Origin: Abditibacterium sp.
GTDB taxonomy: Bacteria; Armatimonadota; Abditibacteriia; Abditibacteriales; Abditibacteriaceae
Assembly: GCA_965199495.1 (NCBI GenBank)
Contig: CBDASK010000003.1
Location: 3,744,001 to 3,808,000 of the forward strand
Direction of reading: 5' to 3'
DNA length: 64,000 nucleotides
Shown here: positions 13,014 through 57,567 of the stretch, piece after piece
Layout of the letters: every line of letters begins with the position of its first letter
Numbering within the stretch: the first letter of the stretch is position 1
Program-made: the position numbers and the translations under genes
The notes under the pieces: generated by a model
What the model was told of the DNA's origin: nothing
What the model saw: the letters and a program-made list of their open reading frames with translations, nothing else
Databases searched by the model: none

Positions 13014-13183
13014 AGCGTCGCTTCGCGCCCCTGTCATTCTGAGCGAAGTGAGGCACGAACGCAGTCGAAGAATCCAGCACGTTTTAGCTGTTGCGTAATT
13101 TCGCAGGGCTTTTCACTTCATGGATTCTTCGACTACGTTCGTGCCTCACTTCGCTCAGAATGACAGGGGCGCGAAGCGACGCT
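13014..13183. repeat. REP-like palindromic element, family A (GTCATTCTGAGC...GAAGAATCC), copy 1
   Basis: Inverted arms about 13014-13076 and 13121-13183. Same core at 24978 and 38631. Confidence 0.85.
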
Positions 13184-15678: not shown

Positions 15679-16167
15679 ATGCGACATAAAGTAGGAAAGC
15701 GCAAGCTGAACAAACCGACCGATCAGCGAATGGCGCTCTTAAAAAACCAGGTGCAGGCGTTGTTCATGCACGAGCGTTTGGTCACGACCGAAGCGCGCGC
15801 CAAAGAAGTGCGTTCGCTCGCGGAAAAGCTGATCACGCGCGCCAAAGTCGATACCTTGGCCAACCGCCAGCAGGTCGAGAAATACATCCAGAAGCCGCCG
15901 ATGCCGACGGAAACCAAATACAAATTCGCCGAGCGCAAAGCGCGCAATCCCTATGCGGTGCGCAAAAGCGTGACGGTGAAAAAGTGGCGCGATATGGAGC
16001 ATCCCGAACGCGAGATTCTGGAGAAACTCTTCACCGACATCGCCCCGCGCTACGCGGGCCGCGCCAAAGACGCCCCCGGCGGCAACGGCGGCTACACCCG
16101 CATCGTGAAGCTGCCCGCCCGTCGCGGCGACGCCGCCCCCACAGCCGTGCTGTTGTTAGTCGAGTAA
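15679..16167 (+). CDS. rplQ: 50S ribosomal protein L17 with an internal insertion
   Basis: MRHK, TTEARAKEVR..AEKLIT and GGYTRIVKL..RRGDAA. Confidence 0.95.
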   Translation: MRHKVGKRKLNKPTDQRMALLKNQVQALFMHERLVTTEARAKEVRSLAEKLITRAKVDTLANRQQVEKYIQKPPMPTETKYKFAERKARNPYAVRKSVTVKKWRDMEHPEREILEKLFTDIAPRYAGRAKDAPGGNGGYTRIVKLPARRGDAAPTAVLLLVE

Positions 16168-16211
16168 TCGTGCGACGTGGCTGCTGTTGAGGACGCGGAA
16201 ATTTGCGGGAT
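16162..16211 (+). repeat. 50-bp segment (rplQ last codon, stop and downstream DNA) duplicated at 22059-22107
   Basis: GAGTAATCGTGCGACGTGGCTGCTGTTGAGGACGCGGAA(A)TTTGCGGGAT; the two copies differ by one A. Confidence 0.95.
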
Positions 16212-16307
16212 AACGCTGATGTGAATCGGTGTTATCCCGCGAGCTTGCAGTGATTTGCGTGCGGTTCGCACGAAGCGAAGGCGACATCGCTATGACGAAA
16301 CTTATTG

Positions 16308-16313
16308 TATAAT
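16308..16313 (+). promoter_or_regulatory. Putative -10 box for a leaderless transcript of the cargo gene
   Basis: TATAAT lies 7 nt upstream of the in-frame ATG at 16321. Confidence 0.45.
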
Positions 16314-16320
16314 GAAAGAC

Positions 16321-17808
16321 ATGAATAAAACCGACTTGAGCTCCATGTATTCTTTGTTCCATTGTGCAGATACTGGCATTGGTGCATTTGCAGTAGAAGG
16401 AATGCATGATAAAGTTCACGAGCATCTTAGCCACCTTGATCAAAAATCTCTGACTAAAGTTCAATTGAACCAACTATTTGTGTTATCCAACGCAGGTAGC
16501 GTGTCGGACGGATTCTTTCAATATTACTGGTGCACAATTCCTGAACACACTTATGATGTAGAGAAAATACGCTACTATAACAAAGGCTTAGACATCAAGA
16601 ACATAGCCAAGCCGGAGATACTGTCTCACGATCATTTGCGGTGGGGTTTATATCGGTTTTACGTAGATGCTCTTCTCTACTTCGGCAATATTTCTGATGC
16701 TTTTGCTGCACTTCGTTCAATAAGTTTCGTAGAGTTGACCGAGTTTTTTGCCCAGAAGCGTTTTGATACAGAATCTATCAAGAATAGGGGGCCGTCTCTT
16801 GATCTTCAAAAAATCATCAAAGATGATAGATACTTGATTTCAGAAATGGTTTGTAAGAACTTCGGCGATTTGACCATTGATGGTGACTTACCCGCAGATA
16901 AAGACAATCTCAGAGAGAAATTTCTGAGACTTTATCGTGAGCGCGCGAAAAAAGGAAAAGGCTCTGTCCCCTTCAAATTGTTGATTGCCGACATTTTAAG
17001 AGAGGAAAAAAGTAATCCTAACCAATTAACGCTCTCTTTCGATGAACTTCTTGAGGACGTCATATCTGATGAGAGCGACCTCATTAAGAAATTCGATGGC
17101 CTACTGACAAAATACTCAAACGCTCGGCAAAAGGCACAACAGAATACCGATCTATATCTTTCAATGGTAAACGACCTTGATATATATGTCGCTACAAGTA
17201 TGCGAACTCGCCAGAATTTCCGCGAAATGGCTGACACTTGTGACGCTATCTTTCGAAGCGAAAATTTGAAAGATTTGCACTTGCGCTACTTCGACCCGAC
17301 GATGAGCGCGGCACGTGGACATGAAGACAAAGGATTGATTGAGTGCTTAATGGTTAAGTGCGCAAAAGTCGTTATTTACACAGCAGGTGAGAAAGAGAGT
17401 TATGGAAAAGATGCTGAAGCTGCTATGGCACTCAGCCTCGGAAAACCAGTTATCTTCCACTGCGATGAAAATGCAAAAGATGACTTTTACAAAAATGTTC
17501 ACCCATTGTCGAGATTGATTGATTTTCGTTCGGGAGTTGCAGTTGGGGCAATTGTATCGAGTAGTATCGTTGACACGACAGAAATTTTGCGGCGTATATT
17601 TTCCAACGAGATGGAGTATGAGATTAAGCATCATGATTCTCGTGATGGTTATCTTAAACTTCACGAAAAGCTGACGGGCTCAGTTGTAAGATTACAAACT
17701 GAAGATCCTTTGCTAACAACGACGTTTTGGAACAATTATCATAAACGCCAGCCTGGAAAATATATCACGCTCGCGGCAGGTAAAGAAGCTGAACGACTTC
17801 AAGAGTGA
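16321..17808 (+). CDS. Low-GC inserted gene with a C-terminal nucleoside 2-deoxyribosyltransferase (NDT)-like domain
   Basis: AT-rich codons unlike its neighbours. C-terminal DIYVATS...FDP...AKVVIY...SYGKDAEAAMALSLGKPVIF resembles the NDT/RCL signature. Confidence 0.6.
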   Translation: MNKTDLSSMYSLFHCADTGIGAFAVEGMHDKVHEHLSHLDQKSLTKVQLNQLFVLSNAGSVSDGFFQYYWCTIPEHTYDVEKIRYYNKGLDIKNIAKPEILSHDHLRWGLYRFYVDALLYFGNISDAFAALRSISFVELTEFFAQKRFDTESIKNRGPSLDLQKIIKDDRYLISEMVCKNFGDLTIDGDLPADKDNLREKFLRLYRERAKKGKGSVPFKLLIADILREEKSNPNQLTLSFDELLEDVISDESDLIKKFDGLLTKYSNARQKAQQNTDLYLSMVNDLDIYVATSMRTRQNFREMADTCDAIFRSENLKDLHLRYFDPTMSAARGHEDKGLIECLMVKCAKVVIYTAGEKESYGKDAEAAMALSLGKPVIFHCDENAKDDFYKNVHPLSRLIDFRSGVAVGAIVSSSIVDTTEILRRIFSNEMEYEIKHHDSRDGYLKLHEKLTGSVVRLQTEDPLLTTTFWNNYHKRQPGKYITLAAGKEAERLQE

Positions 17809-17816
17809 TGTCTTCC

Positions 17817-18599
17817 ATGCGACGAATCGCCTTAACTGTGGCCTACGACGGCACGCCCTGGTGCGGATCGCAACGCCAGCAGAATGGGCGCACGATTCAG
17901 GGCGAAATCGAAGGCGCGCTGGAAACCCTGCTCAAAGCAGCCACGCCGATCTCGATGGCGGGGCGCACCGATAGAGGCGTGCACGCGCGCGGGCAAGTCG
18001 CCGCGTTCGAGACGCCGAATCGCTCGCTCCCGACCGAGCGATTCGATTTGGCGTTGAACGGAAAACTCCCGCGCTCGATTCGGGTGCGCGAGCCGCGCGA
18101 GGTGCCAGAGCGTTGGCATCCGCGCTTTGACGCGACAGGGCGGGTTTACGTTTATCGGTTGCAAATTGGCGACGAAAACCCGTTGACGCGGCAAATCGCC
18201 GCGAGTTGGACGAAACAGTTAGACTACTCTGCCGCACGCGAGGCGAGCCGGGCTTTCATCGGAAGGCACGACTTCAAAGCGTGGCAATCGGCGGGCAGTC
18301 CGATGCCGACGACGGTGCGCTGCGTGCGGCGCATCGAGTTCCGAGAAACGGCGGCTTTCGGGTCGCCGCTCTGGGAAATAGAAATTGAGGCCGACGCGTT
18401 TTTGTATCAGATGGTGCGAAACATCGTCGGCGCGCTGATCGAAGCCGGACGAGGCCGATTGGACGCGGATGCGATTCGGGCGTTGACGCTGGGACGGGAC
18501 AGAACCAAATGTCCGGCCCCGGCGCCGCCGCAGGGATTGTGTCTGGAGCAAGTGATTTACGGAGAAAGAGAGAAAACTGATGGCAAGCATTCAACCTAA
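17817..18599 (+). CDS. truA: tRNA pseudouridine(38-40) synthase
   Basis: [26 protein letters not shown] and APPQGLCL. Confidence 0.95.
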
Positions 18600-19041
18600 A
18601 ACCTACCACGCCAAACCCGGCGAAGTCGAGCGCAACTGGTATGTCATTGACGCAGACGGCCAAACCGTCGGGCGCATCGCATCGCGCATCGCGCACATTC
18701 TGCGCGGCAAGCACAAACCGCAGTTCACCCCGTCCATTGACGTGGGCGATTTCGTGATCGTGCTCAACGCCGAGAAGATCGTGTTCAAGGGCGACAAAAT
18801 GGACGATAAAATCTATTATCGCACTACGACGCGTCCCGGCTCGATGAAGAAGATCAACGCGCGTTCGTTGTTGGAAAAGAACCCGACGAAGATTCTGGAA
18901 GACGCGATCTGGGGCATGGTTCCGCACAACACGCTGGGCCGCCAACAGATCCGCAAACTGCACGTTTATGCGGGCGATTCGCATCCGCACAACGCGCAAA
19001 ACCCGCAGGTTCTGGAACCCTCCGCCATCGGCGTGGGCTGA
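18580..19041 (+). CDS. rplM: 50S ribosomal protein L13
   Basis: [17 protein letters not shown] and HPHNAQ. Confidence 0.97.
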
Positions 19042-19051
19042 AAAATTTCGG

Positions 19052-19150
19052 ATTTCACACAAAGATACTAAGATCACACAAAGAGGCACAAAGGGTTTTC
19101 ATTCATTCTCTTTGTCTCCTTTGTGCGAACTTTGTTTCTTTGTGTGAAAT
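19052..19150. repeat. Inverted short-period (CACAAAG) repeat element
   Basis: ATTTCACACAAAGA...CACAAAG arm and complementary CTTTGTG...TCTTTGTGTGAAAT arm. Confidence 0.65.
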
Positions 19151-19184
19151 GATCGAAGCAACTGTTTGGATAACGAAAAACATT

Positions 19185-19571
19185 ATGGCAGAAACATATT
19201 ATGGCACCGGCAAACGCAAAGATGCGGTTGCACGCGTGTATCTCACGCCCGGATCGGGCACGATGACCGTCAACGGCAAGCCGTTGGACGAATACTTCAC
19301 GCGCATTTTCTCGCAGCAACTCGCCAAAAGCTCTTTGGCCATCGCTGGCGAGCAGACCTTCGACATCAAAGTTTTCTGCAACGGCGGCGGCATCAACGGC
19401 CAGGCCGGTGCGGTCAAGCACGGCATTGCCAAATGCTTGGTCGCGATGAACGAAGAGTTGCGCGGCGGACTGCGCGAAATCGGCGCCCTGACGCGCGACT
19501 CGCGCGTCAAAGAGCGCAAGAAATATGGCCGCAAACGCGCGCGCCGTGGCTTCCAGTTCTCGAAACGCTAA
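19185..19571 (+). CDS. rpsI: 30S ribosomal protein S9
   Basis: GTGKRKDAVARV, GGGINGQAGA and ERKKYG...QFSKR. Confidence 0.97.
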   Translation: MAETYYGTGKRKDAVARVYLTPGSGTMTVNGKPLDEYFTRIFSQQLAKSSLAIAGEQTFDIKVFCNGGGINGQAGAVKHGIAKCLVAMNEELRGGLREIGALTRDSRVKERKKYGRKRARRGFQFSKR

Positions 19572-20521: not shown

Positions 20522-22045
20522 ATGTCTGATTCCCCACAAACTTCTCCTCGCAACGGTTCGCGGCAATCGCCTTCCTGCGTTATGACGATCTTCGGCGCGA
20601 CCGGCGATTTGACCAAACGCAAGCTCATTCCCGCTATCTACGATTTGGCCTGCCAGAAACTTTTGCCCGACGAATTCGCCATCGTCGGTTATGGTCGGCG
20701 CCCGCAGGACGAAACCGAATTCCGCAAAGGTCTGGGCGAAGGCGCCAAAGAGTTTTCGCGCCTCGATTGGAACGAGGAAACTTGGAATTGGTTGTCGGAG
20801 CGCATTTTCTATCAGCCCGGCGGCTACGGCGATCACGATTCTCATGAAGCACTCGAAACGCGTTTGAACGAAATCGCCGAGAAGTTTGGTATCGGCAATC
20901 ATCGTTTGTATTATCTCTCGATTCCGCCCGAAGAGTTCGCGCCCGTTATCGAGAATATCGGCAAAATCCGCCAAGAACATCGCGAAAAAACCGGCGACAG
21001 AGACGCGTGGCGCCGCATCATCGTCGAGAAACCGTTCGGCCAAGATTTGGATTCGGCGCGCAAACTCAACGCGCTGTTGGCGAGGTATTTCAAAGAACCC
21101 GAAGTTTTCCGCATTGACCATTATCTGGGCAAAGAGACTGTCCAGAACATCCTGACTTTGCGTTTTGGCAACATCATCTGGGAGCCGGTCTGGAATAATC
21201 ATTATATTGATCACGTTCAAATCGTGGTATCGGAGAAGGTTGATGTCGGCCAGCGCGCCGGTTACTACGAGTCGTCGGGCGCGCTGCGCGATATGGTCGT
21301 CAACCACATGTTTCAGGTGATGAGTCTGGTTTGCATGGAGCCGCCGACGAGTTTGGCCGCCGACGACGTGCGCGACGAGAAACTCAAGGTTTTGCGCGCC
21401 GTCGAGAAGATGACGCCGACCGAGATTTTGGACAACACGATTCGCGGCCAATACACCGGCTACCGCGAGGCCGAGGGCGTCGCGCCCGATTCCAATACCG
21501 AAACTTATGTCGCGCTGAAACTCGAAATTGATAACTGGCGTTGGGCGGGCGTGCCGATTTATCTGCGTCACGGCAAAGCCTTGGAAGAACGCGTTTCGGA
21601 AGTCGTGATTCGTTGGAAAGACGTGCCGAGCGTGTTGTTCAATGAGGAGCCGGAGAACGCGCTCAAGAGCAATATGTTGGTGATGCGGATTCAGCCGCAC
21701 GACGGTTTTGCTTTGCGCATCAACGCCAAAGTGCCCGGCGGCAACGAGATTCGCGACGTGCGCATGAATTTCGATTACGCCGAAACTTTCGGTGCCGAGC
21801 CGCCCGAAGCCTACGAACGTTTGCTGCACGACGCTCTGATCGGCGATTCGACGTTGTTCACGCGGCGCGACGAAAGCGAGGCGGCATGGGGCATCGTTGA
21901 CCCGATTTTGGAAGCGTGGAAAGACGCGGGCGCGCCCGATTTCTACCAGAAGGGCAGTTGGGGGCCAAAAGAAGCCGACGACTTTTTGTCGCGCGATGGT
22001 CGCCGTTGGCACAAGCCACCGGCGGACACGTTGAAGGGAAAATAA
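20522..22045 (+). CDS. zwf: Glucose-6-phosphate 1-dehydrogenase
   Basis: GATGDL, EKPFG, RIDHYLGKE and WRWAGVP. Confidence 0.97.
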   Translation: MSDSPQTSPRNGSRQSPSCVMTIFGATGDLTKRKLIPAIYDLACQKLLPDEFAIVGYGRRPQDETEFRKGLGEGAKEFSRLDWNEETWNWLSERIFYQPGGYGDHDSHEALETRLNEIAEKFGIGNHRLYYLSIPPEEFAPVIENIGKIRQEHREKTGDRDAWRRIIVEKPFGQDLDSARKLNALLARYFKEPEVFRIDHYLGKETVQNILTLRFGNIIWEPVWNNHYIDHVQIVVSEKVDVGQRAGYYESSGALRDMVVNHMFQVMSLVCMEPPTSLAADDVRDEKLKVLRAVEKMTPTEILDNTIRGQYTGYREAEGVAPDSNTETYVALKLEIDNWRWAGVPIYLRHGKALEERVSEVVIRWKDVPSVLFNEEPENALKSNMLVMRIQPHDGFALRINAKVPGGNEIRDVRMNFDYAETFGAEPPEAYERLLHDALIGDSTLFTRRDESEAAWGIVDPILEAWKDAGAPDFYQKGSWGPKEADDFLSRDGRRWHKPPADTLKGK

Positions 22046-22058
22046 GAAGGCGGAATTT

Positions 22059-22107
22059 GAGTAATCGTGCGACGTGGCTGCTGTTGAGGACGCGGAATTT
22101 GCGGGAT
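22059..22107 (+). repeat. Second copy of the rplQ 3' junction segment
   Basis: Matches 16162-16211 with one indel. Confidence 0.95.
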
Positions 22108-22145
22108 GATAAAATTGTTCTAACGCGAAGGTTTGGAGGTTATTC

Positions 22146-22583
22146 ATGAAAATACCATCTTTTTTTGCAACCGTTGCGGTTATCTGCTTTGGTCAAGTTG
22201 CGATGGCTGATAACAAATCAGACAACGAATTGAAAATTTTGGCTTCAAGAACCAAACTTATGGTCACGGGGCGGGCAGTCTCCAAACCAGAGTTAAGCCC
22301 AATAGGTGTGGGTTATTTGATTTTCGACTTCAGGTTTCAGGCCACACAGGTTTTAAAAGGTGTAATGCCGACATCGAAGAAACTTTTTGTGGAATTCGAC
22401 GCTCCGAAGGATTACCGAAGCGAGCCTTATAAGCTCCCAACTCCACCAGTAAAAGTTGGAATACCTTACATTTTGTTTTTGCATGACAAGGGGGCAGGAA
22501 ACATTCCGAGGTGGAAAGTTGTTGGTATTCGTCCTTACAGCTATCAATTGGTGAAGAAACTGAGACAATTGCATGCTTTGTAA
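22146..22583 (+). CDS. Low-GC hypothetical secreted protein
   Basis: GGAGGT ribosome-binding site, signal-peptide-like N-terminus, AT-rich codons. Confidence 0.7.
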   Translation: MKIPSFFATVAVICFGQVAMADNKSDNELKILASRTKLMVTGRAVSKPELSPIGVGYLIFDFRFQATQVLKGVMPTSKKLFVEFDAPKDYRSEPYKLPTPPVKVGIPYILFLHDKGAGNIPRWKVVGIRPYSYQLVKKLRQLHAL

Positions 22584-22631
22584 TAGTAGCAGAGCAAACC
22601 GTTCCAACAACCGCCTAAACCGGAAACGCAA

Positions 22632-22763
22632 ATACGACCAATCGCTTTAACTGTCGCCTACGACGGCACGGACTTGTGCGGAGCGCAACGTCAGCACAAT
22701 GGGCGCGCGATTCAGGGCGAAATCGAAGGCGCGCTGGAAAGTTTGCTCCAAGACACCACCTAA
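22632..22763 (+). pseudogene. truA: Diverged truA 5' fragment (about 43 codons, start codon ATA)
   Basis: [40 protein letters not shown] aligns with tru[41 protein letters not shown]. Confidence 0.9.
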
Positions 22764-22769
22764 ATCAAC

Positions 22770-23486
22770 ATGAATTCCGAAATTATTATTGCCGAAGATA
22801 GCGCGCAACTCGTTGAAATGTTGGCGGCGCGCCTCGTCATGACCGCGCGCCAGTGCATTGATGAACGCGGCTCGTTTTCGCTGGCGCTGTCGGGCGGTTC
22901 GACGCCCAAAGCGCTTTATCAAAAATTGGCTTCTCCGCAGTGGAAATCGCAAATTGATTGGGCGAACTGCGACATCGTCTTTGGCGACGACCGCGCCGTG
23001 GCTGCGGATGACGCGTTGTCGAATTATCGCATGGCGCGCGAAACGTTATTGGATTTCGTTCCGGCGCGTATATATCGCATCGCAACTGAATCGGACGATT
23101 TGGAAAAAGCGGCGGCGGATTATGACAAGGTTTTGCGTGGGTTGGGCGGGCGTTTGGATGTCGTTTTGCTGGGCCTTGGCGACGATGGTCATACGGCGTC
23201 GCTGTTTCCGGGTTCGCCGCAATTGGACGTTCACGATAAGTGGGTGACGGCCACGCCGGTCGCTTCGTTGGAGCCGCACGTTCGGCGCGTGACTTTTACC
23301 TTCGATTGCATCAATGCGGCGCGGCACATTTGGTTTTTGGCCGTCGGCGTGGGCAAATCCGAGCGCGTTTACGATGTATTGCGCGGATCGAAAAATATCG
23401 CGAAATGGCCCGCGCAGGGCGTTAATCCGCAAAGCGGCGAGTTAGTCTGGTTCTTAGATGAGGCGGCAGCGCGCGATTTGGATTGA
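22770..23486 (+). CDS. pgl: 6-phosphogluconolactonase
   Basis: ALSGGSTPK, FGDDRAV, LLGLGDDGHTASLFP and WFLDEAAA. Confidence 0.95.
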   Translation: MNSEIIIAEDSAQLVEMLAARLVMTARQCIDERGSFSLALSGGSTPKALYQKLASPQWKSQIDWANCDIVFGDDRAVAADDALSNYRMARETLLDFVPARIYRIATESDDLEKAAADYDKVLRGLGGRLDVVLLGLGDDGHTASLFPGSPQLDVHDKWVTATPVASLEPHVRRVTFTFDCINAARHIWFLAVGVGKSERVYDVLRGSKNIAKWPAQGVNPQSGELVWFLDEAAARDLD

Positions 23487-24900: not shown

Positions 24901-24977
24901 AATGCTCCTCGAAAGAGGTGCCTCAATTTTAACCGATTGGGAGATAAACTCCAACTTTAGTTGTTTTGTGGGAATGA

Positions 24978-25143
24978 TTCAGTTTCTCCTCCCTGTCATT
25001 CTGAGCGCAGTGAGGCACGAACGAAGTCGAAGAATCCATAACTTTGAAGTCTCTTCAAACGCGCGCGGCGCCCCGGACGCACTGGATTCTTCGACTTCGT
25101 TCGTGCCTCACTGCGCTCAGAATGACAGGGAGGAGAAACTGAA
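24978..25143. repeat. REP-like palindromic element, family A, copy 2
   Basis: Inverted arms with core GTCATTCTGAGCGCAGTGAGGCACGAACGAAGTCGAAGAATCCA. Confidence 0.85.
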
Positions 25144-25172
25144 CCATTCCGTTTTGTGAACATCTCGCCGCT

Positions 25173-33394: not shown

Positions 33395-33492
33395 CGTAGA
33401 GACACCGACTTGTCTTGTCTAAAACGTAAATGAATCCGCTAAATTTAGCGGGAGCTTCAACGTTTTAGACACGATAAATCGGTGTCTCTACG
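33395..33492. repeat. GTAG-type REP doublet
   Basis: CGTAGAGACACCGA...TGTCTAAAACG / CGTTTTAGACA...TCGGTGTCTCTACG. Confidence 0.75.
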
Positions 33493-36396: not shown

Positions 36397-38628
36397 ATGG
36401 CCGTTTCCTCTTCACCGCCTTCGCTTCACGCGCCTCCCTCCGAAACTCTCGTCGAAAAACCGATGGGCATTTCCCTGCGCGCCATCTTGCTTTCGTTGGG
36501 GCTGGCGTTTTTCTTCGGCTATATTATCCCGATTGTGGACATGAAAATGCGCAACACCTTTTTGGGTGCCACGCATCTGCCGCCGGGCGCCGTCGCCGTT
36601 CTGGTGATTTTGCTTTTGACGGTGAATCCGCTTTTGACGCTGATTTCGCGTCAAAAATCGCGCATCTCGTTGGTGTTTGGCGCGCTCATCGCCTTTGCCG
36701 CGCTGTCAGGATTTTTCTTTACGCGCGGAAATACGGGCAGCCTGTTATTCTGGCTGTTTGGCGCGGGCGCCGTGTTGATGCTATTGACGCTCGCGCTCAA
36801 TCTGGGCCGCCAACCGTTGTCGCGCAATGAGATTCTCACAGTTTATATTTCGTGTTTGTTTTCGACTTTGGCGCCCGGACACGGCGCCGAAAACGTGTTT
36901 GTCGTCAACTTGATTGGCCCATTTTATTACGCGACGCGCGAGAACAAATATCTCGATTTCATGGTGCCTTATATGAAACCGTGGATGACGCCAGCGATTG
37001 ATCCAGCCACCGGCGGTTACAGCGAGGCGCGCAAAGCGGTCATTGACGGTTGGTTCAACAATTCGGCGACGGGACAGGTGCCGTGGGGCGCGTGGCTGGT
37101 GCCGTTGTTGGTGTGGGGCAGCGCCATCGCGTTGATGTATCTCATGATGGCGTGTTTAAGCGTGATGATTCGCAAGCAGTGGGCGCAAAACGAGGCGCTG
37201 GCGTTTCCGCTTTTGCGCTTGCCGCTCGAACTGACCGAAGATGTATACAATGCTAACAACAGCGCGGTTATCGGCGGCTTTTTCCGCAATGGCCTGATGT
37301 GGATCGGGTTTGGCATCGCGGTTTTCATTCAGCTCTTGCGCGGGTTGCACGGCTATTTTCCCGATGTGCCCGATTTCCCGCTCAGCATTGATACCGCCCC
37401 GCTTTTCACCGAGGCGCCGTGGAACCAAATCGGCGGCGCGCCGGTTTTGGTGTGGCCGGTTATCGTGGGCATCACCTATCTGCTCACGGCGGAAATTTCG
37501 TTTTCGTTTTGGTTCTTTTTCTGGTTCATCAAGTTCCAACTCGTCGGCGCCTATTTGCTGGGTTACCCAACGGGCGCGTTGCCGCAACCGATTGGTGCCA
37601 TCGGCGGCAACTCCAAAGCGACTTTCACGTTTTATCAGGAAATTGGCTGTTATCTGGCCTACGTCGGCATCATCGTTTATACCGGGCGCGAGCATCTCAA
37701 ACATATCGTGCTGCGCGGATTGGGCCGCCGCCGCGCCGAGGCCGACGAGGCCAACGAAGCGATGAGTTATCCTCTGGCGTTCTGGGGTTTTGTGGTCTCG
37801 TTCGCGCTTTTGGTGGGTTGGAGCATCGCGGCGGGCCTGAGTCCGGTTTTGGCGTTTGGCATCTGGGCGCTTTATGTCGTCATTATTCTGGCGTTGACGC
37901 GCATCATCGCCGAGGCGGGCATTTTGTTCGTGCAGCAGGGCTGGGTTCCGCTCGGCACAATCGGCCAAATTTTTGGCGCCGGTCAGGGCCATTGGCTATT
38001 GGGCGCATCGTCGTTGCCCGCCGCCGCCACGATTCAGGGCGCCTTGATGACCGATTTGCGCGGATTTATCATGCCGTCGTTTATTCAGGGCTTTAAGTTG
38101 GCGCACGACCGCAAAATCGCGTTGCGCCCACTTTTGGTTTTGATGCTCGCCTGTTCGTTAATTACGATGGCAATGGGCGTTTACATGAACGTAAAGTTGG
38201 GTTACGGACAGGGTGGATTGTCGCTTGATGCTTGGTATGCGGGCGCGGCCTCGGAGATTCCCGCCAAGTCGAGCGCCAGTCTGATCAAAGGCGTAAAAGA
38301 CGCCAGCACTTGGAATTTGGTGTGGGTGGCGCTGGGCCTCGCTTTGACCTACGGCATGATGCTGGCGCGCTCGCGATTCGCTTGGTTTCCGCTCCATCCG
38401 ATTGGTCTGCTCATCGCGCAGACTTACCCGATTGCCGCCGTCTGGTTTTCAGTATTTCTGGGCTGGATGTTCAAAGTTCTCATCACCAAGTTTGGCGGCA
38501 CGGATTCCTATCGCAAAGGCGTGCCCTTGTTTTTGGGGCTGGCGCTGGGCGATGTGATGATGATGCTGTTCTGGCTGGTCATTGACGGCTGGCAGGGCAA
38601 AACCGGCCACAAACTCATGCCGGGATAA
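36397..38628 (+). CDS. Large polytopic membrane protein (DUF6785/DUF6784-like), paralog 1
   Basis: Many hydrophobic segments; QW...E.L.FP and WFPLHPIG motifs; paralog at 55498-57567. Confidence 0.75.
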   Translation: MAVSSSPPSLHAPPSETLVEKPMGISLRAILLSLGLAFFFGYIIPIVDMKMRNTFLGATHLPPGAVAVLVILLLTVNPLLTLISRQKSRISLVFGALIAFAALSGFFFTRGNTGSLLFWLFGAGAVLMLLTLALNLGRQPLSRNEILTVYISCLFSTLAPGHGAENVFVVNLIGPFYYATRENKYLDFMVPYMKPWMTPAIDPATGGYSEARKAVIDGWFNNSATGQVPWGAWLVPLLVWGSAIALMYLMMACLSVMIRKQWAQNEALAFPLLRLPLELTEDVYNANNSAVIGGFFRNGLMWIGFGIAVFIQLLRGLHGYFPDVPDFPLSIDTAPLFTEAPWNQIGGAPVLVWPVIVGITYLLTAEISFSFWFFFWFIKFQLVGAYLLGYPTGALPQPIGAIGGNSKATFTFYQEIGCYLAYVGIIVYTGREHLKHIVLRGLGRRRAEADEANEAMSYPLAFWGFVVSFALLVGWSIAAGLSPVLAFGIWALYVVIILALTRIIAEAGILFVQQGWVPLGTIGQIFGAGQGHWLLGASSLPAAATIQGALMTDLRGFIMPSFIQGFKLAHDRKIALRPLLVLMLACSLITMAMGVYMNVKLGYGQGGLSLDAWYAGAASEIPAKSSASLIKGVKDASTWNLVWVALGLALTYGMMLARSRFAWFPLHPIGLLIAQTYPIAAVWFSVFLGWMFKVLITKFGGTDSYRKGVPLFLGLALGDVMMMLFWLVIDGWQGKTGHKLMPG

Positions 38629-38630
38629 AT

Positions 38631-38846
38631 TGGGATAACGGATAACGGATAATGAATAACGGATGGCAGATTTCGGATTGTCATTCTGAGCGTAGAGAGG
38701 CACGAACGAAGTCGAAGAATCCACGGTGTGCGACTAAACTTTGCTTTTGTCGAAGCCGTTACGTCATGGATGCTTGCGACTTCGTTCGTGCCTCTCTACG
38801 CTCAGAATGACAATCCGAAATCTGCCATCCGTTATCCGCTATCTGA
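38631..38846. repeat. REP-like palindromic element, family A, copy 3, with heptamer (GGATAAC) flanks
   Basis: Family A core flanked by ATAACGGATGGCAGATTTCGGATT and its complement. Confidence 0.85.
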
Positions 38847-55497: not shown

Positions 55498-57567
55498 CTA
55501 ATTCGGCATTAGCAAATGGCCGACGCGTCCGTTTAAACCGTCAACGGCCAGCCAGAACAGCATCATCGTTACGTCGCCCAGCGCTAACCCCAAAAAGCCC
55601 GGCATCGCTTTGCGATAGGAATCGTTGCCGCCAAAACGCGTGATCAAAGTTTTGGCGAGCCAGCCCAGAAAGAACGAGAACCAGAACATCTGCGCCGCGA
55701 ACGTCAGGCTGAGCAGATAGCCAATCGGGTGAAACGGAAACCACGCGAAGCGGCTGCGCATCAGCATCATGCCCCACGTCAGGGCGGCGCCGATGCACAG
55801 CCACAGCCAGTTTGTGACGGGCGCGGTCGCTTTGTCTTGCATAATGTTCTCGGTGAATTTCGCCGGGCTTTGCGATAAAAATTCGCGCGCCCAACTGCTG
55901 GTCAGCGACAAACCGCCGTTTTCGTAGCCCAATCGCACCACCATCCACAAACTCATGCCAAGCGAAATCAGCGTGACGACTGAGATCAATTTCAATAGTG
56001 GACGAGCCGGAATTTTGTTGTCGTGCGCCAACTTGAAACTATGCACGAACGACGGCATAATGAACGCGCGCATATGAAAAATCAGCCCGGCCTGTACGAA
56101 CGATGCGGGCACCAAGCCCGCCGTGGCTCCTGTCAGCCAACCCAAACTCGATGGCAACAGCCGGTTAATCGCGTTGAGCGGATACATATCGTGCAACAAA
56201 AACAAGACGCCGCCCTCGACGGCCATGCGCGATAGAACAATCGCGAACACCAGATAACTCGCCCACAACGTCAGAGCTATGTCGAATCTAACGCCCAGCA
56301 CAAGGGTAAAACCGATGAGAAAAGCAAAAGACAGCGCGAAACCCCAGAACGCCGCCGGATACGATAATGCCTCGGTTCCCTCGTCGGCGCGCGCGCGTTC
56401 GCGGCCAAAGGCGCGGCGCAAAATATGTTTGGCGTGTTCGCGCCCGGTGTAGACCACCAAAAATGTGTAGGCCAGATAAGCGCCGTAAACCTGAAAACCC
56501 TGAAACAATTTGCCGGGAAAAGTCAGCGCCGCGTCGGGCAGAGTTGACGGCATGAAACCGGTGTAGTAGGCGCCGATCATCTGGAACTTCATGAACAAAT
56601 AGAAGAACCACAACGAAAACGAAACTTCTGAAGTTAGCAAATATGTGATGCCGACTGCAATCGGAAAGACCGAAACGTTGACCCAGCCCAACTGATTCCA
56701 CGGCGCTTCGGTAAATAAACTGCCCGTGTCAATGCCGAGCGGAAAATCCGGCACGTCGGGAAAGTAAAGGTGCAAACCGCGCATCAATTGAATGAAAACC
56801 GCGATGCCAAAACCGATCCACATCATCGGATTGCGGAAGAATCGCCCGAACGTCCCAAATTTGTCGGGTTCGTCCATGTCCTCGACCATCTGCAACGGCA
56901 ACTTGAGCAGGGGAAACGAAAGCGCCTCGTTTTGCGCCCACTGCTGGCGCAGCATCACGCTCAGGCACGCCAGCATAATGTAAATCGCCAGAATCGCCAG
57001 CGTCCACACCGCCAAAGGCAAAAGCCACGCCGCCCACGGAATCGAAGCGCCGGGCCGCAAACCCTCATACCAACCGGCGACAACCGTCTGATTATAAGCG
57101 CCCGTGGCTGGATCAATCGAAGGCGTCATCCACGGTTTCATCGCCGGTTGCAGAAATTCGAGCCATTTGTTTTCGCGCGTCGCATAATAAAACGGCGCGA
57201 TGAGAACTGGAACGATCAAATTTTCGGCGCCGTGCCCCGGCACCAGACTGGAAAACAAACACGAAATATAAACCGTCAGCGCTTCGTTGCGCGTGAAAGA
57301 TAATTTTTTGGAAAGCGTGCGCACGAGCGGATTGACCAGCAAAACCAAAATCAACAACGCGCCGATGGCGCCCGGCGGCAGGTGCGTGCCGCCCAAAAAC
57401 GTGTTGAGCAGTTTGAAATCAATGACCGGCAGCAAATATCCCAGCACGAACGCCAGCGCGATGCAAATGGCGATGACGCGAAACGAGATGCCGCGCTCGC
57501 GCGCCGTGCGGTTATCGCTGTTGGCTTGAGTGGCAGATTGCGGCGCGGAGGCGAAAGGGGCTTGCAT
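55498..57567 (-). CDS. Large polytopic membrane protein (DUF6785/DUF6784-like), paralog 2
   Basis: Shares HLPPGA, PGHGAEN, PFYYATRENK and QWAQNEAL.FPLL with 36397-38628. Confidence 0.75.
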   Translation of the reverse strand: MQAPFASAPQSATQANSDNRTARERGISFRVIAICIALAFVLGYLLPVIDFKLLNTFLGGTHLPPGAIGALLILVLLVNPLVRTLSKKLSFTRNEALTVYISCLFSSLVPGHGAENLIVPVLIAPFYYATRENKWLEFLQPAMKPWMTPSIDPATGAYNQTVVAGWYEGLRPGASIPWAAWLLPLAVWTLAILAIYIMLACLSVMLRQQWAQNEALSFPLLKLPLQMVEDMDEPDKFGTFGRFFRNPMMWIGFGIAVFIQLMRGLHLYFPDVPDFPLGIDTGSLFTEAPWNQLGWVNVSVFPIAVGITYLLTSEVSFSLWFFYLFMKFQMIGAYYTGFMPSTLPDAALTFPGKLFQGFQVYGAYLAYTFLVVYTGREHAKHILRRAFGRERARADEGTEALSYPAAFWGFALSFAFLIGFTLVLGVRFDIALTLWASYLVFAIVLSRMAVEGGVLFLLHDMYPLNAINRLLPSSLGWLTGATAGLVPASFVQAGLIFHMRAFIMPSFVHSFKLAHDNKIPARPLLKLISVVTLISLGMSLWMVVRLGYENGGLSLTSSWAREFLSQSPAKFTENIMQDKATAPVTNWLWLCIGAALTWGMMLMRSRFAWFPFHPIGYLLSLTFAAQMFWFSFFLGWLAKTLITRFGGNDSYRKAMPGFLGLALGDVTMMLFWLAVDGLNGRVGHLLMPN

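Follow-up and report, generated by a model that had tools for sequence, protein, structure and literature searches.

Between zwf and pgl in this Abditibacterium genome (G000), the end of rplQ and the beginning of truA recur as short copies around a gene unrelated to the one that separates rplQ and truA themselves. This raises the questions of whether the rplQ-truA junction is a slot whose cargo can be replaced, and of how a second version of it came to stand elsewhere. The window that we analysed, a stretch of 64,000 nucleotides (G000:C3:3744001-3808000), contains both loci, and coordinates below are those of the window unless a contig is named. We find that the zwf-pgl module is a real but decaying relic of an rplQ-truA slot allele, made up of a lone integron attI site and one captured gene; most likely it is a local duplication that has since collapsed, and not a programmed exchange device.

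Layout of the two modules and variation of the slot

The features of the native slot and of the ectopic module are as follows.

15679..16167 (+), rplQ, ORF, single copy; left flank of the native slot
16162..16245 (+), head of the native slot: rplQ end, motif at 16173-16183, and an attI-derived core turned hairpin, without an intact G/TT
16312..17808 (+), native cargo, 498 aa from ATG (517 from TTG at 16255), 41% GC
17817..18599 (+), truA, right flank of the native slot; motif at 17938-17948 (-)
18580..19571 (+), rplM and rpsI, single-copy ORFs between the two modules
20522..22045 (+), zwf, ORF; the ectopic module begins 4-13 nt past its stop
22050..22059 (+), 10-bp repeat at the left joint; second copy at 22092-22101
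22059..22107 (+), copy of the rplQ end and slot head, from self-comparison; motif inside, at 22070-22080
22096..22119 (+), orphan integron attI core; G/TT crossover at 22117/22118; 3 mismatches in 24 to the intI-adjacent attI
22118..22621 (+), integron-type gene cassette (leader, ORF, degenerate attC 5' half), from sequence comparison
22146..22583 (+), 145-aa ORF with a signal-peptide-like N terminus
22589..22621 (+), degenerate attC 5' half, conserved AAC altered, 3' half missing; 12.5 bits
22632..22763 (+), 5' piece of truA lacking a start, about 41 codons closed by TAA; decayed, different allele
22770..23486 (+), pgl, ORF

Comparison of the genome with itself bears out the near-identical, once-gapped copy of the rplQ end that the first-pass annotation had described: 22059-22107 and 16162-16211 agree in 49 of 50 nt, with a single gap, and the final 12 nt of this copy belong to the integron attI. 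The start-less copy of truA is likewise present (22632-22752 against 17817-17937, 106 of 121 nt identical), except that strong similarity ends near 22752-22759 and not at 22763. The two copies of the left flank are 5.9 kb apart and those of the right flank 4.8 kb, in direct orientation. The genome-wide flank search that had been recommended yields two significant copies of each flank, resident and ectopic, with no third in the 4.8-Mb genome (one full truA and one fragment), and a fuzzy search with the DNA immediately flanking the ectopic cargo found no further copy. The 10-bp repeat lies at 22050 and 22092 as reported, and is possibly a small duplication left by the joint. The motif noted in the left flank and, inverted, in truA is indeed at 22070-22080 and 17938-17948, but it is no peculiarity of these flanks, being a genome-wide word with 28 copies in the window against 0.19 expected. 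The unequal divergence of the flanks, which had been remarked on, loses its significance when decay is treated apart from allele difference, since some 3.3 decay changes are expected in 50 nt and one was seen (P ~0.16).

Both cargos are of low GC, 42.5% for the 145-aa ORF and 41.1% for the native cargo against 56-62% for zwf, pgl and truA, and there is no DNA similarity between them, as had been stated. No homologues of the 145-aa protein were found; it belongs to no Pfam or PADLOC family and shows no sequence similarity to the first cargo of the related metagenome contig L071, and its gene was found in none of the 30 relatives searched, native slots included; a protein language model gives a lead towards TIMP-like small proteins. 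No Pfam or PADLOC family was found for the native cargo either, for which a nucleoside deoxyribosyltransferase-like C-terminal domain is a weak lead; it falls in unnamed clusters (atlas 0.93) and could be a defence gene. The 145-aa ORF, the truA piece and pgl (22146-22770) share one reading frame, separated by stops, which is probably chance (1 in 9). Elsewhere in the window are REP-like intergenic hairpins of several families (13014-13183, 24971-25150, 38648-38843 and 33395-33492) and a 2-kb inverted pair (36466-38588 and 55538-57492, 70-81% identity) that probably represents paralogous genes. The gene caller misses some short low-GC genes, the 145-aa cargo among them, and misplaces starts, which affects the intergenic shares and gene-end scar calls reported below.

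Misassembly had been named as an outcome that would overturn the module. This is probably a metagenome assembly, for MAG stands in the titles of its two nearest relatives, and confirmation is incomplete in that no listed contig of run X20, which may be the source sample, bridges the outer joints on the zwf and pgl sides. The X20 contigs are nevertheless exact over both cargos: one of 670 nt equals 22068-22737 and one of 1,665 nt equals 16182-17846, each with no differences, at depths of 38.5 and 41.4, like their flanks, and depth is even over all 30 bins. Run X1, from another study (depth 5), contains a contig in which 22667 is connected to 17923, and 17970, by way of 28 additional letters, to 22761; this is a longer, differently eroded or internally deleted truA piece ahead of pgl, and the joint of the truA piece to pgl is thereby seen in a second study. 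Zero cover over either cargo in runs X1-X3 was not counted as absence. The comparison drew on X1-X3 and X20, shares being small in runs X4-X19. Since collapsed reads could not yield the 12% divergence between the truA copies, an assembly artefact is hardly credible.

The suggestion that rplQ-truA is a swappable slot holds within one clade. G000, G004, G011 and L071 group together in rpoA and rpsI trees (18 rows, support 100/100), and slot variability was compared across these species and their relatives. The four in-clade junctions seen in full are 1.6-2.4 kb long with a different cargo each, against 9-309 nt and no cargo in all 26 junctions scored outside the clade; scoring left out G005, in which both genes are cut, and L019, L074 and L075, which are without rplQ. 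Tabulation across relatives, as had been advised, also brought out extra flank copies. The order in G011 is rplQ, cargo, a truA piece of 65 codons, two small genes, an rplQ piece from codon 101, cargo and truA; L071 is arranged similarly, with 54 truA codons, an antitoxin-like gene plus a PIN gene, and rplQ from codon 99. In contig L085 a truA piece of 87 codons is fused straight to the last 12 codons of rplQ, and in G004 the rplQ end is copied internally. These tandem copies have four different breakpoints. A breakpoint fixed by the inverted motif in truA, which had been entertained with the proviso that it might be chance, does not fit truA pieces ending at codons 54, 65 and 87, and the motif is rejected as a breakpoint signal. 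None of the 14 other zwf-pgl loci contains pieces of rplQ or truA; the zwf-pgl gap is about 95 nt in G004 and G011 and 0.9-1.0 kb in three motif-less genomes, and G011 shares the order rpsI, zwf, pgl.

L071 has, in addition, a duplicate of rpsI around a methylase-containing cargo: codons 8-128 are repeated around a DNA methylase gene and a 399-aa gene (L071:8319-11523), a possible restriction-modification pair. Two small genes for coiled-coil-like products of 65 and 85 aa, assigned to no family, occur as a pair at differing positions in the slots of three clade members (L031:8052-8518, L032:2150-2616 and L085:488-954). One genome bin, G008, holds two rpoA-rplQ-truA loci (L033 and L034), through contamination or duplication.

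Integron sites in and around the slot

Cassette exchange without an integrase, as had been supposed, is not what the locus suggests, for the cargo sits at a copy of attI and the genome carries an intact intI. This gene (C3:4211948-4212880; 384 bits against a cut-off of 265, zero stops) is the only one above the cut-off and lies 446 kb from the ectopic attI, not adjoining the site at 22096-22119. Upstream of it, on the opposite strand, are an attI, one cassette and an attC; the whole (G000:C3:4211063-4212880) is a complete integron with a single ankyrin-like cassette. When the intI-adjacent attI core was used as sole seed, a genome scan allowing up to 5 mismatches returned five matches, namely the seed itself, C3:3151504, C3:3988708, the window site and one weak site. 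The window site differs at three of 24 positions, one of which turns the conserved AAC into AAA, and a match with three mismatches has by arithmetic a chance of about 0.002 per genome. In G000, G011 and G006 the attI core and the intI match are separated by 163-171 nt.

The cassette leader starts at the crossover TT (22118), with the ATG at 22146, and resembles the leaders of other cassettes of the family. The ectopic site has no complete foldable attC, only a degenerate 5' half and then the truA piece; because 270 chromosome sites score as high as its 12.5 bits, the evidence for this half rests on its occurring at the expected place, within 25 positions of the stop, and the attC profile was trained on a set that had spurious rows and included L071. 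The native slot of L071 has the same anatomy in clearer form: the rplQ end is followed in turn by the motif, an attI-like core, a cassette, a clear half attC and truA, and the first bases of the half attC complement the start of the cassette. The slot heads of G000, G011 and L085 have the same core start followed by a hairpin, and attC was not seen with the native cargos of G000 and G004 or the first cargos of G011 and L071. The ectopic attI may or may not still accept cassettes.

A degenerate attI pattern gave 34 matches in 12 of 46 genomes and none for the reversed control. Among the 30 matches examined, four have a full intI upstream, four a remnant and 22 none within 1.0-1.5 kb; orphan attI sites occur in motif-less relatives too and are thus a family-wide feature, not a property of the clade. 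They were recorded (L237-L266) in G003, G004, G005, G006, G007, G009, G011, G013, G019, G021 and G025, with up to seven matches in G006 and two sites in G004, which has no intI match. In G000 the matches at C3:3151504 and 3988708 each head cassettes with full attC and no intI, an arrangement that qualifies as CALIN/SALIN; these two platforms (3149110-3151505 with at least two cassettes, 3988100-3988710 with one) lie directly behind housekeeping gene ends.

CALIN and SALIN are integron cassettes without a neighbouring integrase (PMC4889954; bioRxiv 10.1101/2022.09.11.507474), and mobilisation of CALIN in trans has been proposed (PMC9668308). The zwf-pgl module is like them in having a cassette-type gene away from intI, with intI elsewhere in the genome. 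It is unlike them in that it keeps an attI core and only a degenerate half of attC, and would not be so called, and in that its attI is joined to the end of a housekeeping gene, with which it was copied. Two of these sources (PMC4889954; 10.1101/2022.09.11.507474) state that most integrons have no known attI and that no search is made for it, so that standard integron scans would miss the slot.

Exchange between species and the origin of the copy

Between G000 and G004, identity at 4-fold degenerate sites is 92-95% for rplQ (92%), truA (95%) and rplM, compared with 73-83% for rpsD, rpoA and rpsI and 67-75% for zwf and pgl; among 227 orthologues in a 500-kb sample of G004, with a median of 0.69, truA ranks first, rplM third and rplQ fourth. 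These sequence comparisons indicate that rplQ-truA-rplM was recently exchanged between species, in line with the earlier suggestion of a swappable slot. A second likely exchange tract with cargo is G000:C3:884221-892784, where ileS and one gene of the neighbouring scar cargo come 7th and 8th among the 227. The truA piece in the G011 slot differs at 3 of 120 nt from the truA of L071 and at 15 from G011's own truA. That in the window differs at 15 of 120 nt from the resident truA, at 18 from that of G004 and at 28-36 from other clade alleles; like G011 it retains the ancestral Asp14, which is replaced by Pro in the resident gene (two changes), it has at least five changes at positions conserved across the genus, and its pN is 0.16 against a pS of 0.23. 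The piece would thus be an older or foreign allele, since decayed, and with the anatomy shared by the native slot of L071 the capture of a relative's allele looks to have been correctly called.

Comparison of G000 with itself also revealed many short direct repeats of gene ends around accessory-gene stretches of 0.4-6 kb, involving what we take, from our own reading of the translations, to be metH, ffh, ilvD, ilvC, topA, carB, pckA and ileS. In 15 hand-picked scar fragments pS is 0.35 (130/369) and pN 0.10 (129/1,269), which shows that their divergence took place in working alleles. A tile-by-tile count of terminal hits gave 30 for G000 (4.7 Mb), 4 for G004 (0.5 Mb) and 2 for four motif-less genomes together (1.6 Mb). 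Filtering leaves about 20 in G000, one in G004 and one in the motif-less set (P 0.009 against that set), but the filter was chosen after the output had been seen and G004 shows no excess (1 in 0.5 Mb), and the link of the scar excess to the motif clade is suggestive only. In G016, which has no motif, the 3' end and terminator of rpsI are duplicated (L050:8878-9858).

We propose the following course of events. An attI without an integrase gene, whose sequence is present today, would at some time have come to lie behind rplQ in this clade, where IntI encoded elsewhere would load cassettes and make the slot variable. The identities above indicate that slot alleles pass as entire units from one species to another, through homologous recombination in rplQ, truA and rplM. 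Where only a single crossover took place, or one end was joined illegitimately, a piece of a flanking gene would be duplicated around the cargo, producing the tandem truA-rplQ arrays of the relatives and the approximately 20 gene-end scars of G000. In the window, a single crossover with a donor fragment that extended from the rplQ end to the zwf end would have made a tandem duplication carrying the slot allele of the donor. Loss of everything between truA codon ~42 and the pgl leader would then have removed the redundant genes and kept the cassette. The cassette may have arrived with the donor allele or have entered later at the moved attI; it cannot be told which. The DNA would enter by natural transformation biased by an uptake sequence of the clade, with the core CGTGGCTG, a function for which we consider the odds about even. 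To this five-step explanation as a whole we give a probability of about 0.62.

Two other accounts of the copy deserve consideration. Were the short flanks working homology arms, through which a storage site would trade cassettes with rplQ-truA as the site of expression in a programmed, integrase-free manner, as the first-pass annotation had offered as an option, one would understand that both arms are present, that both native arms carry the motif and that the left arm is 98% identical, and the tandem arrays of relatives could resolve to either allele without loss of an essential gene. A crossover between the two sites in the window would, however, remove the single-copy rplM and rpsI, the loss of which is presumably lethal; there is only one ectopic copy in the genome, breakpoints vary, the right arm has changed at genus-conserved positions, and none of the 14 other zwf-pgl loci carries pieces. 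We regard such a device as very unlikely. A one-off duplication in this genome, with neutral decay, an unrelated cassette insertion and no foreign allele, would agree with the piece being nearest to its own truA and with its high pN, yet the retained Asp14, the recurrence of the same duplication in four relatives, and an attI form of the ectopic slot head that differs from the resident form make it highly improbable; exchange with the G004 lineage has affected the resident block too, and the piece may be the older resident allele. The collapsed duplication of a slot allele remains our preferred reading. It has to accommodate the absence of the cassette gene from native slots and from the 30 relatives, among which no donor was found, as well as the weak half attC and the altered AAC of the attI.

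To our knowledge minimal mobile elements have no site-specific recombination site or mobility gene, whereas the rplQ-truA slot carries an attI core. Those of Neisseria, as set out in the accessible part of PMC3787668, are otherwise similar in their variable content between conserved flanking genes and in recombination within the flanks; they differ in that exchange here is between species, that the slot contains attI, that failed exchanges leave tandem copies of gene ends, and that an ectopic copy exists. With respect to the joints, single-crossover integration and HFIR (PMC3240628) and merodiploids made by transformation (PMC3784515) also combine one homologous end with one illegitimate joint, and single crossovers of recircularised fragments left duplications of 109-950 bp in E. 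coli (PMC3240628). Here only fixed scars are seen, and canonical HFIR, in the part of that study available, usually deletes resident DNA and does not duplicate it (PMC3240628), which counts against our explanation.

A genome-wide word resembling an uptake sequence

The motif carried by both native arms belongs to a word, CG[ACG]CGTGGCTG, with 2,113 copies in G000, 1,776 in G011 and 720 in G004 and no more than 132 in any of the other 58 of 61 genomes. The reversed control has 27 copies in G000, and variants with a single change in the core have 0-18 against 276. The core is 8-11-fold over its reversed control in G000, G004 and G011 (2,676-3,503 copies), and the highest ratio in the remaining 248 of 251 genomes of the phylum is 5.5, with 274 copies. 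G153, G058 and G129 have core ratios of 4.5-5.5 at low counts (34-274). A 15-mer dialect, in which the core is shared, occurs 1,288 times in G004, three times in G000 and not at all in G011, G006 or G009; all three copies in G000 are within 500 nt of local duplications, which amount to 3.2% of the chromosome, two of them within 100 nt and one inside.

Copies in G000 are divided evenly between the strands (1,045/1,067) and show no polarity by replichore (350/367 and 695/700), although the replichores are uncertain because GC skew is weak; a Chi- or KOPS-like polarity is rejected by these counts. Their spacing is more even than random (variance/mean 0.84 per 5 kb). Contigs C1 and C2, which are of lower GC and probably mobile elements, have one copy in 89 kb against 40 expected, and density per 5 kb is 0.25 below 48% GC and 2.1-2.4 above 52%. 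Two of the six reading frames hold 1,523 of the 1,966 coding copies in G000, and amino-acid identity at word sites is 0.51-0.52 against 0.65-0.67 overall. Against outgroups 255 of 290 coding copies are gap-free, on which ground spread as an inserted REP element is rejected for coding copies; many DUS arise by recombination and face gaps, according to the accessible text of PMC2397512, so a gap-free origin is not a defining test. Close pairs are mostly inverted (51 against 2 in G000, 42 against 7 in G004 tiles). The intergenic share of core copies is 44% in G004 and 7% in G000, and the intergenic copies of G004 often form inverted pairs, conserved hairpins that resemble REP elements.

The word thus has most of the sequence hallmarks of the self-DNA uptake tags of Neisseria and Haemophilus and is a candidate DNA uptake sequence. 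Such sequences have been described from two proteobacterial families only, by the account in the available part of 10.1101/2025.10.24.684340, and our literature search, which left subscription journals mostly outside its reach, met no paper on such a word in the Abditibacterium group. With the DUS of Neisseriaceae and the USS of Pasteurellaceae (10.1101/2025.10.24.684340; PMC3630211; PMC2397512; PMC7371117; PMC2817400), as portrayed in the accessible portions of those papers, it shares thousands of copies of a short asymmetric word on both strands, dialects with a common core, inverted pairs, favoured reading frames, placement at poorly conserved residues, scarcity in foreign DNA and a foreign dialect that marks acquired DNA. 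It is unlike them in its unrelated sequence and phylum, its lower density (1 per 2.2 kb for the 11-mer), its scarcity of terminator pairs in G000, the single variable position that it contains, and in being known from sequence alone. The 7% of G000 copies that are intergenic, compared with about half in terminators in the known families as far as these sources go, speaks against our reading.

It is also possible, although unlikely, that the relic and its integron cassette are as described while the word is unrelated to DNA uptake, being for example a binding site of a chromosome-organising or repair protein or the product of a methylase-linked drive, with slot alleles moved by transduction, conjugation or unbiased transformation. 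The low intergenic share in G000 would suit this, as would the REP-like hairpins of G004 with Y1 transposase genes present, and the existence of orphan attI and of a gene-end duplication in genomes without the motif; Y1 transposases are, however, equally common in motif-less genomes. A search for the receptor family ComP (PF16732) gave no match in five genomes and none in 14 controls either, and is uninformative. The lack of replichore polarity, the non-palindromic word, its two dialects on a shared core, the depletion in small contigs and the gap-free coding copies, which are hence not inserted elements, count against this alternative. The competence genes present, comEC, a ComEA-type HhH gene, dprA, secretins and 47 pilin-type N termini, are not specific to the clade; comEC is found in motif-less relatives as well, in 20 of 21 genomes in all, and does not single the clade out. 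Further points against our explanation are that the clade in which motif and slot cargo go together amounts to one evolutionary event, and that orphan attI sites, and in G016 a duplicated rpsI end, occur without the motif.

The component parts are of known kinds; their arrangement is new. The zwf-pgl copy is in itself a relic of modest interest. In the fullest form of our interpretation, which we put forward tentatively and at somewhat less than even odds, the clade would have evolved its own DNA uptake sequence, independently of Neisseriaceae and Pasteurellaceae, which has split into dialects and become coupled to a distributed integron; a distant IntI would load lone attI sites behind housekeeping genes, and transformation would trade loaded slots between species, each rplQ-truA arm bearing an uptake word, leaving the zwf-pgl module and some 20 gene-end scars as its footprint. 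A hypervariable slot in a ribosomal protein operon can, it appears, be an integron docking site, and here a candidate uptake word is accompanied by independent signs of exchange between species. As the word is found in three sister species and lacking in nine congeners, its origin, its receptor and its effect on recombination are open to close comparison.
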